Shown here in pieces: positions 6,258-29,208 of a stretch of 37,471 nucleotides of DNA. The notes beneath the pieces are model-generated. The model worked only from the letters and a program-made list of their open reading frames with translations, had not been told where the DNA came from and searched no databases. Position 1 is the stretch's first letter; each line of letters opens with the position of its first letter. The translations under genes were made by a program, and so were the position numbers. Source of the stretch: a virus (Duplodnaviria; Heunggongvirae; Uroviricota; Caudoviricetes); IMG/VR virus record IMGVR_UViG_2531839523_000005, one strand, 5' to 3'.

Positions 6258-6311
6258 GGGGGCAGTATTGCCCCCGTGCGGGAACGCTGATATTAAAGGC
6301 GTTTAAAAAGC

Positions 6312-12848: not shown

Positions 12849-12924
12849 GATTGTGCTCCTGTGTAAGTTCAGGGCAGTATGTCGGGAGAAGCGCGTGACG
12901 GATATTAAAGGAGATTAAGAAGAA

Positions 12925-18762: not shown

Positions 18763-18898
18763 TTTGCTGTCCCGCGTTATGTTGTCGGAGACAGTTTGTG
18801 AGAAATGCAGGCCCGGCGATTTTAATCTGCTTTAGAAAACATCAGGGGAGAAGGACAGGGAAAGCAATGCGGTGAACCGGAGGCGGTTATAAAACAGA

Positions 18899-25259: not shown

Positions 25260-25881
25260 TCACCGTGGCGACATGTCCGAACCAGCGGGTGCTGTCCAGA
25301 CCTTTCTGTGATGCAAGCCGCCTGTCCCGTTGTACCCAGCCCAGACCACCGTTATAGCCCGACAGTGTCATGGCCATACGCTCGCAGTCACTGGCGGCGC
25401 TGACACGCTGCCACAGCCAGCGGTCATAGCTGACCAGCGCCCGGATAGCCCATGCCGGATTAAACGGCTCACGACTGCTCAGCATCGGTATCAACTGGCT
25501 TATCCAGTCGGCAGTGGCAGGCATGAACTGCGCCAGTCCCTGAGCGCCAGCCGGCGAGATCGCATCAGGTCGCCAGCCGCTTTCCTGATGCAGTTGCGCG
25601 GCGAAATCGGCCACCGGCGCAGACAGTCCCCATTCAAGCCGGGCATTACGGATCACATCATCGCGATACTGCAGCGCAGCCTGCGGAGGTTGTGCTGCGC
25701 ATGCCTGGCTGAAAAAGCCGCCACACCAGAGCAACATTGCGACAAAGAATACCCATGCCATATGAACCAGAAAGGTCCCGGCGCGGACTGACAGGCGTTC
25801 GGTTCTGATGAAGACCCGAAAGGCTTCGAAAGCCAGTTTCAGGGACATGCATACAATCCAGGTGATCTGCGGCCAGTTCAT
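25141..25881 (-). CDS. Endolysin, lytic transglycosylase (SLT domain), possible signal-anchor type
   Basis: GLAQFMPATA SLT motif; hydrophobic segment MAWVFFVAMLLWCGGFF; start abuts holin stop. Confidence 0.8.
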   Translation of the reverse strand: MNWPQITWIVCMSLKLAFEAFRVFIRTERLSVRAGTFLVHMAWVFFVAMLLWCGGFFSQACAAQPPQAALQYRDDVIRNARLEWGLSAPVADFAAQLHQESGWRPDAISPAGAQGLAQFMPATADWISQLIPMLSSREPFNPAWAIRALVSYDRWLWQRVSAASDCERMAMTLSGYNGGLGWVQRDRRLASQKGLDSTRWFGHVATVNAGRNAASWRENRHYPQRILHELAPRYLTWGGSSCVASG

Positions 25882-25883
25882 GA

Positions 25884-26234
25884 TTAAAGCCCCATCGCAA
25901 CAGCCAGGCAGACCGCTGCAACAATCAGTGCACGGCGGATTAACGCAGCAGAAAACACCAGGTGAAGGCCGGTCTGTACCGGGAAACGCCCTTCAGCCAT
26001 CAGCCTGTCGTCATGTTTCAGGTACTGACCGGGACGGGCTTTGGGGAAGAGCGAACGGTCAAGCCAGTAACCCAGCACTGCTGCCAGCGTGATGAGTGCC
26101 AGCTTGTAGATCACAACAGGCAGCTGCTGTGGTGAGACCAGAGCGATGGTGCCCAGCAACAGCACTGAGGTCAGCAGCCAGCCGCTGAGGCGAGGTTTTT
26201 TAACAGGGGGAATGAATTTTTTCAGGTTTTTCAT
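25884..26234 (-). CDS. Putative holin, first gene of the lysis/late operon
   Basis: Start MKNLKKF at 26234 with AAGGAGA RBS; three predicted TM helices. Confidence 0.55.
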   Translation of the reverse strand: MKNLKKFIPPVKKPRLSGWLLTSVLLLGTIALVSPQQLPVVIYKLALITLAAVLGYWLDRSLFPKARPGQYLKHDDRLMAEGRFPVQTGLHLVFSAALIRRALIVAAVCLAVAMGL

Positions 26235-26364
26235 GTGTGTCTCCTTATCTGGTGGAGACAGCATCACAAATACAGGGCGCGAAGGATTTTAAAGCGCGTT
26301 AAGAGAGCCGGGGATACGGGATGTGCAGGATAAACGATGAATTATTCACAGAGGAGAATACGAT

Positions 26365-27093
26365 ATGACGCAGACACTGAATCCGGTCATCACTGTCACC
26401 GTGTCCGGTCCTGTGGGCAGCGGTAAAAGTTACGTACTGGCGCGAATAGAGGAAGTGGTGAAACAGGAATTCGGAAACAGCGTCATTGTCGACGCCGCAG
26501 ACGTGGACGGTGAGCGCCGTATGAGTGGGGATGATCTGAGCACATGGCAGAAACCACGGGCTGGCACAGTGATCAGGCTGGAGGAATACACGGGACAGGG
26601 CCTGTTGTCATACGGCGAGGAGCGTATCTGTCGGACGAATGAGCTGCTGGATGTTATATGCCCCACGGGCCGGCAACCCTGGATACTGCCCGATGCACTG
26701 CATGCCACCATTGCGGCACTGATGACAGTTTACGATCAGGAGCTGCTCATGAAGGAGTTACGTAAACTCACTGGTCAGTCAACAGAATGTTGTTCGTCCC
26801 CGAAGTACGGCAAACAGGAACACATCCCGATTAACCAGCCTCCCCGGTTCTTCGACGAATACCTTCTGACACCGGAAAATAAAGCTGAGCATGAAGAGAT
26901 CAAAGCGGCGTTGTTCCGGGAAATCAGGAAGATTGCTGAAATGCAACTGGAGGGCGGGCTGGACAGAGTGATGGCGAGAGGAGAATGGGCATCGCTGTTT
27001 GAAAGAGTTTCCCCGGAATTACTTCCCCTCGCACTGGCTATCGGGATTATGCAGACAGCGGATAAACCTCACTTACGTTCATTAAACACGTAA
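26365..27093 (+). CDS. P-loop NTPase-like protein of unknown function
   Basis: Walker A VSGPVGSGKSYV near N-terminus; GAGGAG RBS; opposite strand to late operon. Confidence 0.6.
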   Translation: MTQTLNPVITVTVSGPVGSGKSYVLARIEEVVKQEFGNSVIVDAADVDGERRMSGDDLSTWQKPRAGTVIRLEEYTGQGLLSYGEERICRTNELLDVICPTGRQPWILPDALHATIAALMTVYDQELLMKELRKLTGQSTECCSSPKYGKQEHIPINQPPRFFDEYLLTPENKAEHEEIKAALFREIRKIAEMQLEGGLDRVMARGEWASLFERVSPELLPLALAIGIMQTADKPHLRSLNT

Positions 27094-27473
27094 CGCATAA
27101 TCCGGGATACGCATTCAGCGATGACTGCATTTTCACCGGTTTTTACTGCATCCAGAAGTGACTCTTTAAATGGTACGGGCCGGGGCTGCAGAAAGGTCGG
27201 CATGGCATTGAGCAGACAGAGCGTTTTTTCCGTGAGGACGACATCAGCCGCTCCCACAGCCAGCAACTGAGAGTAACGAATATAGCTGTTATCCCGAAGC
27301 CATATCAGCGTATCAATAAAACACCGGCACTTTTTCTGGTCGTGATCAACCTGGTCCGGGATATCGAAAAAACCAGAATAAATCAAAACCTGAGGTGCCG
27401 GATGCGTGTTCAGTAATCGGCAGAATATTTTGCCGGTGAGTACATAAAAATCATCATTTAAGGAGTGCATCAT
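27069..27473 (-). CDS. Hypothetical protein, head-to-head with 27472-27687
   Basis: 134 aa; 3' end overlaps P-loop gene by 25 nt. Confidence 0.4.
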   Translation of the reverse strand: MMHSLNDDFYVLTGKIFCRLLNTHPAPQVLIYSGFFDIPDQVDHDQKKCRCFIDTLIWLRDNSYIRYSQLLAVGAADVVLTEKTLCLLNAMPTFLQPRPVPFKESLLDAVKTGENAVIAECVSRIMRYVFNERK

Positions 27474-27687
27474 GAATCCCCGATTAACGTTAACAGAACA
27501 TCAGCGCCGTGCTGAAGCAGTGAACAATGTTCTGGAAGATATTATCCGGTTATACCGCGGAGAACTGAGTGTCTGTCGTGCCGCTTTTCATTTTCAGGGA
27601 ATACAAAAGCAGTTTGATACTTCTGTTTTTGCAGAAGGTATTACTTATGCCCTGGACCGGATAAGGTCAGAAAATCGCCCCGGATAA
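27472..27687 (+). CDS. Hypothetical small protein
   Basis: 71 aa; strong AAGGAG RBS 6 nt upstream of ATG. Confidence 0.4.
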   Translation: MNPRLTLTEHQRRAEAVNNVLEDIIRLYRGELSVCRAAFHFQGIQKQFDTSVFAEGITYALDRIRSENRPG

Positions 27688-27742
27688 TCCCTAAACCACA
27701 TTAACAGAAATCCCGCCATCCCTGCCGCATCATGAAAGAACG

Positions 27743-27772
27743 ACCAGCCCGGCACCCGAAAGCCGGGCTGGT
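27743..27772. terminator. GC-rich stem-loop between the small ORF and the methyltransferase gene
   Basis: ACCAGCCCGGC-acccgaaa-GCCGGGCTGGT, perfect 11-bp stem; no clear T-tract on plus strand. Confidence 0.35.
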
Positions 27773-27877
27773 CATCGCCCCACAGGAATGCGCTGTGAGC
27801 CGACCAAGGTTCAGTCAGTCTCGCGAGACCTGACCAGACTGCCATATTTTTTAATAATTGTAAAAGGCTTACAGATT

Positions 27878-28642
27878 ATGAAAATGCAGACATTACCCAT
27901 CGTGCCGTGGATTGGTGGCAAACGCCGCCTTGCAAAACACATTCTGCCGCTGTTTCCGGCGCATGAATGTTATGTGGAGCCGTTTTGTGGGGCAGCAGCG
28001 CTCTATTTTCTTAAGACACCCGGCAAGATCGAAGTCATCAATGATATCAACGGTGAACTGGTGAATCTGTACCGGGTGGTAAAGCATCACCTGGAAGAAT
28101 TTGTCCGCCAGTTCAAATGGGCGCTGGTCAGCCGTCAGATCTACAAATGGCTGCAGATCACCCCGGAAGAAACACTGACGGATATCCAGCGTGCGGCACG
28201 GTTCTACTACCTTCAGAAGCAGGCGTTTGGCGGCAAGGTGGCAGAGCACAGCTTCGGTACCTCCACCACATCCCCGCCACGCTTCAACCTGCTACGTATT
28301 GAAGAAGAACTGTCAGCGGCACACCTGCGGCTTTCCAGAACAGTCATAGAACACATGGACTGGCAACAGTGCATTGAGCGTTATGATCGTCCGCACACGC
28401 TGTTCTACTGCGACCCACCGTACCTGGGTACGGAAGGCTATGGTGTGGATTTTCCTGAAGGGAACTACTCGCGGCTGGCAGAGCTGGCCCGGTGCATCAG
28501 AGGAAAAATGATAATTTCGGTGAACGACATCCCGCAGATGCGCGAGGTGTTCACTGGACTGAACATACAGACAGTGAATATCAACTACAGTCTGGCGGGT
28601 AAACCCACGCCGCGCCGTGAACTGCTAATCTGCAACTTCTGA
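27878..28642 (+). CDS. Dam-family N6-adenine DNA methyltransferase (orphan)
   Basis: VPWIGGKRRL, VEPFCGAAALYF, DINGELVNLYRVVK and YCDPPY motifs; start taken at MKMQTLP (27878), the track ORF begins at 27788. Confidence 0.9.
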   Translation: MKMQTLPIVPWIGGKRRLAKHILPLFPAHECYVEPFCGAAALYFLKTPGKIEVINDINGELVNLYRVVKHHLEEFVRQFKWALVSRQIYKWLQITPEETLTDIQRAARFYYLQKQAFGGKVAEHSFGTSTTSPPRFNLLRIEEELSAAHLRLSRTVIEHMDWQQCIERYDRPHTLFYCDPPYLGTEGYGVDFPEGNYSRLAELARCIRGKMIISVNDIPQMREVFTGLNIQTVNINYSLAGKPTPRRELLICNF

Positions 28643-28649
28643 AACAAAA

Positions 28650-28672
28650 CCGGAAAGCACAATGCTTTCCGG
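28650..28672 (-). terminator. Intrinsic terminator downstream of the repressor gene
   Basis: CCGGAAAGCA-caa-TGCTTTCCGG, 10-bp stem; on the minus strand followed by UUUUGUUUC. Confidence 0.5.
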
Positions 28673-28758
28673 TAAACCAAACAACTTCCACTATGTCACT
28701 GGCGATGTTTTCTGAAAGCATCCAGATCAACCACCTGTCCTTTGTGTCCGGGTCAGTA

Positions 28759-29115
28759 TCAGCCTGCGATTTTTCCTGGTTTTGGCTGAGTATAGAATCG
28801 CCCAATCTCAAGAAATGAGCGTTGTTGGTCTGGTGTCATGTCGTCAAAAGTATCTATTAGTTTTTGTTTTTCTGGGGAAATTTGATTCTGGTTTCTAGTC
28901 ATACCATCTGTGCTCATTCCAGTGAGCAACCAATTTACATCAACATTAAACTCTTGATGCATCTTTAACAGAAACTCCCCTCCAGGCATCGCCTTTCCAT
29001 TTTCAATCTGACTGATACCACCATTAGAAATACCTAAACGAGCTGCAAATTCTCTCTGGTTCAACCCTGCTTTCTTCCTCACAGAAATAACGCGCTCTCC
29101 TATATCTTTGCTCAT
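28759..29115 (-). CDS. XRE-family HTH transcriptional repressor (phage repressor candidate)
   Basis: N-terminal HTH LNQREFAARLGISNGGISQIENGK; divergent from early operon. Confidence 0.8.
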   Translation of the reverse strand: MSKDIGERVISVRKKAGLNQREFAARLGISNGGISQIENGKAMPGGEFLLKMHQEFNVDVNWLLTGMSTDGMTRNQNQISPEKQKLIDTFDDMTPDQQRSFLEIGRFYTQPKPGKIAG

Positions 29116-29161
29116 AAAAGTGAATCTCTATCTTGATATGCTCATAATTATGAGCAATAAT
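29107..29161 (+). promoter_or_regulatory. Early promoter/operator region
   Basis: -35 TTGATA (29133-29138), 17-bp spacer, -10 AATAAT (29156-29161); perfect 16-bp palindrome GCTCATAATTATGAGC (29140-29155) in the spacer; half-site CTCATAA also at 29111-29117. Confidence 0.45.
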
Positions 29162-29208
29162 CTAACACATATAAGGCAAACATCATTGCATCAACAAAGG
29201 AGACAACG

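Follow-up and report, generated by a model that had tools for sequence, protein, structure and literature searches.

The ORF242 locus

The stretch of DNA analyzed here, called the window below, is a 37,471-nucleotide (nt) virus record of IMG/VR (IMGVR_UViG_2531839523_000005), and the gene under study is ORF242, an open reading frame (ORF) at 26365..27093 on the plus strand. The window is a Mu-like transposable prophage of Escherichia coli of the Bcepmuvirus (BcepMu-like) type, and encodes an rve transposase, a MuB-like AAA_22 ATPase, Gam, Mu gp27, an SLT lysin and a Holin_2-3 holin. Its late genes read leftward, with the holin gene (25884..26234/26267, minus strand) at their upstream end. ORF242 is the first gene beyond the holin and lies on the opposite strand. 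It is followed by ORF134 (minus strand), ORF71 (plus), a Dam methylase gene (plus), a helix-turn-helix (HTH) repressor gene (minus), and a Ner-like gene with the early transposition operon (plus).

A 1.5-kb stretch around ORF242 was matched in 614 of 5426 complete E. coli genomes, always in the chromosome and with O25b:H4 and JJ1887 included, and Escherichia phage PhiKM is 100% identical to the window over region 25800-29200. Genome position and gene content, rather than an alignment, indicate that the window is probably prophage Phi2 of the ST131 strain EC958.

ORF242 is a genuine gene with a strong ribosome-binding site. Its full coding sequence (242 amino acids (aa) plus stop) starts with ATG, 8 nt downstream of the Shine-Dalgarno element GAGGAG (26351-26356, plus strand; read from the sequence). 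The label given by the Prokaryotic Genome Annotation Pipeline (PGAP) is hypothetical protein (RefSeq WP_000194951.1). Compared with 95% identical alleles, ORF242 has few substitutions, too few for a ratio of nonsynonymous to synonymous rates, and they show only a third-position excess in the N-terminal domain.

A sequence-only reading of the window had noticed a Walker A motif, GPVGSGKS, near residue 15 of this 242-aa protein. The motif is borne out at residues 15-22 (26407-26430, plus strand) and is conserved in the family described below. It is the sole Walker A match in ORF242, preceded by the hydrophobic strand VITVTVS and followed by an amphipathic helix. The pattern G-x4-G-K-[ST] was present in only 0.6% of shuffled ORF242 sequences (n = 200,000). 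Because of this rarity, and because the motif is kept across the family (G20 and K21 invariant), it is not a chance occurrence.

A conserved mini P-loop domain

An exhaustive HMMER search across 1.84 billion representatives found 64 proteins at E ≤ 1e-3, 31 of them at E ≤ 1e-10; the matches P0047 and P0070 were rejected as repeat-protein artefacts. In essentially all real matches the homology covers positions 1 to ~76. According to the profile matches, the alignments A2 and A3 and an AlphaFold2 (AF2) model, residues 1-75 (26365..26589, plus strand) form a mini P-loop domain, the only part of ORF242 with relatives outside E. coli. In a word-indexed search covering 5.8 billion proteins, all relatives returned were from E. 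coli, at 62-94% identity. A profile search with a tighter alignment, A4, gave 26 viral loci and one genome locus; since only one genome locus was found in this way, the taxonomic breadth of the family rests on the protein searches.

The family signature comprises a hydrophobic strand, the motif G-x-x-G-x-G-K-[ST], an amphipathic helix, Gly37, a short strand, E50-R51, W61-x-x-P64, and a strand ending in L72-x-E74. Conservation was counted in 38 family representatives of less than 70% identity. Within the Walker A motif, G20 and K21 are present in all 38, and G15 and S/T22 in 37 each. Elsewhere, I28 is found in 37, G37 in 35 and P64 in 30. The pair Glu50-Arg51 (26512..26517, plus strand) lies in the loop between strands 2 and 3; E50 is conserved in 34 of the 38 and R51 in 27, with lysine in three more. 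We infer that the pair is a candidate metal-binding or catalytic carboxylate with an arginine finger.

Strand 3, with the sequence VIRLEE (residues 69-74; 26569..26586, plus strand), carries L72 in 31 of the 38 representatives and the invariant E74 (38/38). By its sequence this strand, ending in Glu74, appears to be an acidic Walker-B-like element. The claim of the sequence-only reading that no Walker B is recognizable has therefore to be qualified: such an element seems to be present, alongside the E50-R51 pair, but it is not a canonical hhhhD/E motif; the position before E74 is variable and a conserved Asp is absent. Overall, the conservation pattern of the family looks catalytic in style.

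Half of the representatives (19/38) are shorter than 100 aa, that is, they stand alone, with proper stops and varied downstream genes where the loci were viewed. These stand-alone members have 71-90 aa; the 71-aa proteins of Yersinia mollaretii (P0090) and Acinetobacter pittii (P0108), for example, end in clean stops and are followed by unrelated genes. Because half of the representatives stand alone and their downstream genes vary, the mini P-loop seems to work without a fixed fusion partner.

One lineage (P0028, P0050, P0052) has GKN in place of GK[ST] and Lys in place of E50, a coupled change as would be expected if both residues share one site. Alternatively, the sequences suggest catalytically dead copies. 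Every locus examined was phage-like, and the family, which is uncharacterized, is restricted to phages and prophages.

Comparison with known families

ORF242 was searched against Pfam (with gathering cut-offs applied), NCBIfam, PADLOC-DB v2 and PHROG. The sole true family match is PHROG 3787, a function-unknown group (positions 1-242 of 242, E = 4.9e-170), which is also matched by 28 of the 29 mini P-loop family members tested. The sequence-only reading could not assign a family either, and PHROG 3787 is indeed a label without function. In Pfam, NCBIfam and PADLOC there were only sub-threshold matches limited to residues ~3-52, to AAA_30, KAP, AAA_22, T2SSE, Zeta_toxin, CobW, ABC-type, uridine and guanylate kinase, and Csx3-AAA models. 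Residues 83-242 match nothing in these three collections, and to that extent the absence of a partner domain noted earlier was correct.

Like the toxin kinases Zeta and PezT, the ORF242 family consists of small P-loop proteins on mobile elements with a weak Walker A match between them. The Zeta toxin model PF06414 scored 12.0-14.4 bits against a cut-off of 22.3, over residues 6-46 only. Unlike Zeta and PezT, the family lacks the ~200-aa kinase body and an upstream epsilon/PezA-type antitoxin gene; no such gene was found beside ORF242, where the upstream neighbor is the divergent holin gene and the downstream neighbor the convergent ORF134.

The Walker A motif, the helix and a G-x-V-x-hD strand of the family align with ABC-B nucleotide-binding domains, and hhhLxE is similar to the last part of an ABC Walker B. 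In contrast to these domains, the family has no Q-loop, LSGGQ, D-loop or H-loop. The LSGGQ signature is absent from the ORF242 sequence, PF00005 (ABC) gave no match to it at E ≤ 10, and relatives reached no more than 18.2 bits (cut-off, 25), so the ABC name used in RefSeq is unjustified.

The AAA+/ASCE models AAA_30, AAA_22, AAA_16, T2SSE and KAP_NTPase also remained under their cut-offs (AAA_30, 16.5-19.3 bits versus 27; KAP, 13.4-15.4 versus 20; T2SSE, 11.5-14.1 versus 24.9), and the guanylate kinase, uridine kinase and AAA_18 models fell far below theirs. Nucleoside and nucleotide kinases, dTMP kinase included, were not matched at family cut-off, and the NMP-binding and LID regions are missing. 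The best PADLOC-DB v2 match was Csx3-AAA (E = 0.0029, 15 bits), on the Walker A segment only. The comparison with kinase, Zeta-toxin, AAA and ABC folds proposed by the sequence-only reading thus yielded no family by hidden Markov models (HMMs), and nothing significant by fold. Its guesses of a toxin, an abortive-infection effector or a kinase are unsupported, because all family tests fail, the conserved unit of ~70 aa is too small, the gene is quasi-core in its lineage, and the family occurs in a cultured phage and in late operons. Conservation of the ORF, on which that reading had said it would stand or fall, was found, and there was no confident match to a housekeeping phage function either.

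The closest general relative is the P-loop NTPase superfamily with its kinase-GTPase-type core, as in the PRK/uridine-kinase-like protein YGR205w (PDB 1odf). ORF242 has the Walker A motif of this superfamily, G-x4-G-K-[ST] between a hydrophobic strand and a helix. The three-layer alpha/beta core of at least five parallel strands is absent: the model contains three strands and one helix, and homology ends at ~76. ORF242 is a real P-loop-motif protein that fits no named functional family.

Structure models

A full-length AF2 model of ORF242 built from 13 near-identical sequences was unusable, with a predicted local distance difference test score (pLDDT) of 43.9, and a model of the N-terminal domain was used instead. 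For residues 1-82, with a 29-sequence alignment, pLDDT was 65 and the predicted template modeling score (pTM) was 0.55. It contains one helix (residues 21-39) and three strands (8-14, 41-43 and 69-75). With this model, Foldseek found no PDB match at E ≤ 0.001, and a fold search of BFVD found only another family member, of 72 aa. A sequence-profile search of the PDB matched ABC-B proteins and cytidylate kinase in their Walker A segments, and also hit the designed P-loop prototypes 6c2u and 9jix (the de novo ATPase PL2x4_2). These prototypes are laboratory constructs, whereas the ORF242 family is natural and phage-borne; compared with them it adds two strands, the conserved E-R loop and the invariant terminal Glu.

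The mini P-loop is thus modeled as a truncated P-loop unit of three strands and one helix, which would be too small for a closed NTPase core. As such a unit cannot close the core, self-association or docking on a partner may be required.

Helical tails and allele variation

Residues 83-242 of ORF242 are predicted helices, in which two modules vary among E. coli alleles. The middle module (residues ~88-135, W-LPDA-H-AAL-YDQ-L-ELRK; 26626..26769, plus strand) is absent from 182-aa variants, and the C-terminal module (residues ~166-242, LDRVMARGEW...; 26860..27090, plus strand) is absent from 141/158-aa variants. The allele lengths in E. coli are 247 aa, 242 aa (the form in the window), 182 aa without residues 53-124, and 141/158 aa without everything after ~135; the last are the alleles misnamed 'ABC transporter ATPase' in RefSeq. 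Two of the shorter forms occur at altered loci. In E. coli PK8261 (L005, 3325-4466) the locus is decayed, with a 182-aa P-loop gene lacking residues 53-124 and a frameshifted ORF134. In E. coli AVS0754 (L004, 3566-5738) the P-loop gene is shortened to 158 aa at a recombination joint, and two minus-strand genes (193 and 328 aa) stand in place of ORF134, ORF71 and Dam. Both of their products have hydrophobic stretches and look membrane-like by eye, and the 328-aa product is distantly related to KP12_283.

The middle module is also found at the C-terminus of P0062 and P0057, whose N-termini are unrelated. At the same locus in contig L017 there are three consecutive genes, encoding an 88-aa mini P-loop, a 161-aa protein whose end matches ORF242 residues 110-141 (E = 1e-3), and a 76-aa protein matching residues 186-220 (E = 5e-5). 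In other relatives the tails differ strongly and reach up to 364 aa. The fact that tails are fused or split between phages suggests that they act with the P-loop head, as adaptors.

Among ten long relatives, none of the fused C-terminal domains is known to Pfam, with the exception of one PG_binding_1 fusion. In this protein (P0081; L049, 1919-2398) a peptidoglycan-binding domain (PF01471, E = 4.7e-15) is fused N-terminal to the mini P-loop. Since family genes so often neighbor lysis genes, the fusion could hint at a link to lysis, as a single case on a 2.9-kb contig.

Genomic contexts of the family

In E. coli genomes the lysis module was found at 705 places, the P-loop N-domain at 620 of these (~88%) and the C-terminal module at 536. 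The P-loop head is therefore nearly core in this prophage lineage, and the tail less so. The gene is always divergent from the holin gene in the E. coli BcepMu-like prophages. In the window, L017 and L050, three diverged BcepMu-like phages, it comes first after the holin gene, in divergent orientation, and the P-loop domains are 35-53% identical. In L050 a Dam gene follows directly 3' of it on the same strand. In Klebsiella phage KP12 and in BcepMu itself, this position is taken by other genes. The 'cargo' position assumed by the sequence-only reading is questionable, given the frequency of the N-domain beside the lysis module and its recurrence at the same site.

The gene also occurs in prophages of siphophages and in IMG/VR contigs. 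There it reads in the same direction as the late genes, preceded by holin/Rz-type genes and closely followed by HNH-TerS-TerL. Among 28 loci, 12 have a TerL gene no more than four genes away, and 11 an HNH gene. In the 130-kb Vibrio phage 1.101.O (MG592473; L012, 3983-4231) the genes for thymidylate synthase and dihydrofolate reductase flank that of an 82-aa homolog, with ribonucleotide reductase close by and an N6-adenine methylase ~2 kb away. In large phage-like contigs the P-loop gene adjoins an NAD-dependent DNA ligase gene or lies near a TubZ-like gene.

Promoters and expression

The 97-nt gap 5' of ORF242 contains no sigma-70-like promoter. Most of it is filled by a late-promoter-like element of the holin operon (26259..26301, minus strand), which reads away from ORF242. 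The motif, TAA-N5-WTTAAWATC-N23-CTG, was refined post hoc from its four sites and has exactly four copies in the window, versus 0 expected by chance from shuffled sequences. The copies, at 26259-26301, 18792-18834, 12875-12917 and 6263-6305, are all on the minus strand, each ahead of a late gene block, and end in the -10-like hexamers GATGCT, CAAACT, CATACT and AATACT, respectively. The motif is kept before the holin gene in E. coli relatives and also in KP12, which lacks the P-loop gene. The four copies are probably activator-dependent late promoters, which would make them counterparts of the four C-dependent promoters in Mu. The idea that ORF242 shares such a late promoter was considered and rejected: comparison with the three other sites shows that the conserved intergenic blocks belong to the minus-strand holin promoter.

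An in-frame start further upstream (GTG 26267 or ATG 26264, 'MLSPPDKETH') would lengthen the window holin by ~10 residues. In L017 (6835-7000) the same conserved ATGCTGTCTCC begins merely an 11-codon upstream ORF. This block is more likely promoter than coding sequence, because it overlaps the predicted -10/start region of the late promoter.

In EC958 lysogens, the Dam homolog of prophage Phi2, named M.EcoMIV, is transcribed far below host dam, and no methylation signature or motif was detected for it (PMC4659465). If, as we presume, this prophage is the same as the window, the evidence leans against strong lysogenic expression of ORF242.

Neighboring genes

ORF134 (PHROG 2266; 27069..27473, minus strand) is convergent with ORF242 and overlaps its last 25 nt. 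ORF71 (PHROG 4490; 27472..27687, plus strand) is the divergent partner of ORF134, their start codons overlapping by 2 nt. Neither has a match in PADLOC-DB v2, and ORF134 matches no antitoxin model. P2-like phages show the same divergent architecture, with a 143-aa homolog of ORF134 (31% identity) and a divergent 63/64-aa gene. For Escherichia phage Midge, the annotators record an HHpred similarity to T7 gp5.5/5.7. In Klebsiella phage ST147-VIM1phi7.1 such a pair adjoins a reverse transcriptase and an XRE regulator, and contig L017 carries the pair as well. KP12_281 was rejected as an ORF134 homolog. The pair is a two-gene cassette that is mobile on its own. An obligatory ORF242-ORF134 pair was ruled out, as ORF134/ORF71 occur alone in P2-like phages and are missing from L050 and AVS0754.

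The gene of the Dam-family adenine methylase (27881..28642, plus strand) is given with the PGAP start (765 nt, 254 aa); the longest ORF begins at 27788 (284 aa). Between it and the convergent HTH repressor gene (28759..29115, minus strand) lies a hairpin with an 11-bp stem and a T-run (28649-28673), which was scored as a terminator-like element of the minus strand and could end transcription of both genes.

Possible functions of ORF242

The reading that we favor, tentatively and at slightly less than even probability, is that ORF242 is a mini P-loop module that binds nucleotides, is probably oligomeric, carries adaptor tails and is used in lytic development. The ORF, its motif, the limits of the domain, the pattern of conservation, the modularity, the genomic contexts and the lack of fit to known families are observed here, whereas nucleotide binding, oligomerization, the roles of individual residues, lytic-phase expression and the process served are all inferred. 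Lys21 and Ser22 would hold the nucleotide phosphates and Mg2+. Glu74 ends the strand expected to lie next to strand 1 and would be the Walker-B-like carboxylate, possibly together with Glu50. The domain would either associate with further copies of itself, in which case Arg51 may act in trans, or bind to a partner, and the helical tails may provide phage-specific oligomerization or partner contacts. ORF242 would then serve the lytic development of the phage itself as a nucleotide-dependent switch or adaptor in nucleotide or DNA transactions, and would neither protect nor poison the lysogen. A lytic-cycle function is favored over a lysogen-protecting toxin because relatives are found in the cultured 130-kb Vibrio phage and in late operons next to terminase.

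Several observations weigh against this interpretation. No plus-strand copy of the late motif faces ORF242 and no other promoter is recognizable there. Alleles that are truncated or have lost internal sequence are frequent in E. coli, and the tails, or the whole gene, may thus be dispensable. Only one of the phages, Vibrio phage 1.101.O, is a cultured isolate. The contexts differ between phage groups and leave several processes as candidates, namely packaging, lysis timing, nucleotide metabolism and counter-defense. The lysis-terminase interval and the flank of the immunity gene are also classical places for morons expressed in the lysogen. The model of the N-terminal domain is only moderately confident, and a monomer cannot show an active site or an oligomer. 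Our literature search found no paper on any member of the mini P-loop family.

A bolder version, possible but on the whole doubtful, takes the ~70-residue domain to be a natural autonomous minimal P-loop protein, the counterpart in nature of the designed P-loop prototypes, oligomers of which would bind or hydrolyze nucleotides or bind nucleic acid. Phages would use it, alone or joined to exchangeable helical adaptors, in a step of infection, possibly to counter defenses by binding nucleotide signals. A role in counter-defense or host takeover specifically, in which the mini P-loop would sequester a nucleotide-type immune signal, another phosphorylated ligand or a host protein while the tails track host targets, we consider unlikely. 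A small phage-restricted protein with variable tails in many unrelated phages would suit it, and so would modification or anti-restriction neighbors: Dam in the window, L017 and L050, a Lar-like gene, the adenine methylase of the Vibrio phage and, in L019, an Acb2/Tad1-hairpin gene and a weak 'Sequestin' match 4-6 kb away. These associations are loose, however, on different strands and kilobases apart, and the conserved Glu and Arg suggest catalysis over mere binding. Nucleotide sponges are not known to include P-loop proteins. Distinctly unlikely, in our estimate, is a defense, abortive-infection or toxin gene expressed in the lysogen, which would sense or block a superinfecting phage or kill the cell, possibly with ORF134/ORF71. 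The interval from the lysis cassette to the immunity repressor, in which ORF242 lies, is indeed mosaic and varies in content among related phages; the C-terminal modules of ORF242 are shuffled like those of arms-race genes, and ORF134 homologs occur in a P2-type cargo region beside a reverse transcriptase and an XRE regulator. The weak similarity to Zeta_toxin, AAA_21/AbiEii, KAP and HerA models, in contrast, is sub-threshold and confined to the Walker A segment, and an antitoxin-like partner is absent. A domain found in the nucleotide-metabolism cluster of a cultured 130-kb phage and in siphophage late operons, with a head near-universal in this prophage lineage, also fits such a role poorly. 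ORF134/ORF71, moreover, are absent from L050 and AVS0754 and present without the P-loop gene in P2-like phages, and the presumed EC958 counterpart of the same-strand neighbor Dam is nearly silent in the lysogen (PMC4659465).

The P-loop might instead hold DNA or RNA rather than free NTP, as a non-catalytic binder of the phosphate backbone serving packaging or regulation of the lysis operon. Its repeated placement immediately upstream of HNH-TerS-TerL and the persistence of the GKN/E50K lineage agree with this, as does the profile similarity to the designed phosphate-loop protein 6c2u, relatives of which are described in a preprint as binding single-stranded DNA and separating strands (bioRxiv 10.1101/2020.07.30.228619). 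The BcepMu-like phages, however, have no HNH gene near the locus, large phages place the gene elsewhere, and residues as strictly invariant as Lys21 and Glu74 are more often seen with NTP-Mg2+ chemistry; we regard this explanation as quite improbable. Very improbable is a classical small nucleotide or nucleoside kinase making precursors for phage DNA synthesis. One homolog does lie between thymidylate synthase and dihydrofolate reductase, and source records carry the automated names 'uridine kinase' and 'thymidylate/uridylate kinase', but 71-aa stand-alone members leave no room for nucleoside monophosphate-binding or lid segments, and the scores of the kinase HMMs given above point the same way.

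Significance

About one in ten complete E. coli genomes carry the ORF242 gene, many O25b/ST131-labeled clinical isolates among them, under the labels 'hypothetical' or, wrongly, 'ABC transporter ATPase' or 'KAP family NTPase'. If the gene proves ordinary or dispensable, the practical benefit is that its annotation is corrected and the boundary of the domain defined. The family is widespread in phages and undescribed, and ORF242 is a conserved accessory gene with clear residues to mutate (K21, E50, R51 and E74). With a P-loop unit far below the accepted minimal NTPase fold, it offers a natural test of how much scaffold a Walker A site needs. If the reading as a minimal P-loop protein is true, its members would rank with the smallest Walker A proteins in nature and represent a new functional class in phages.

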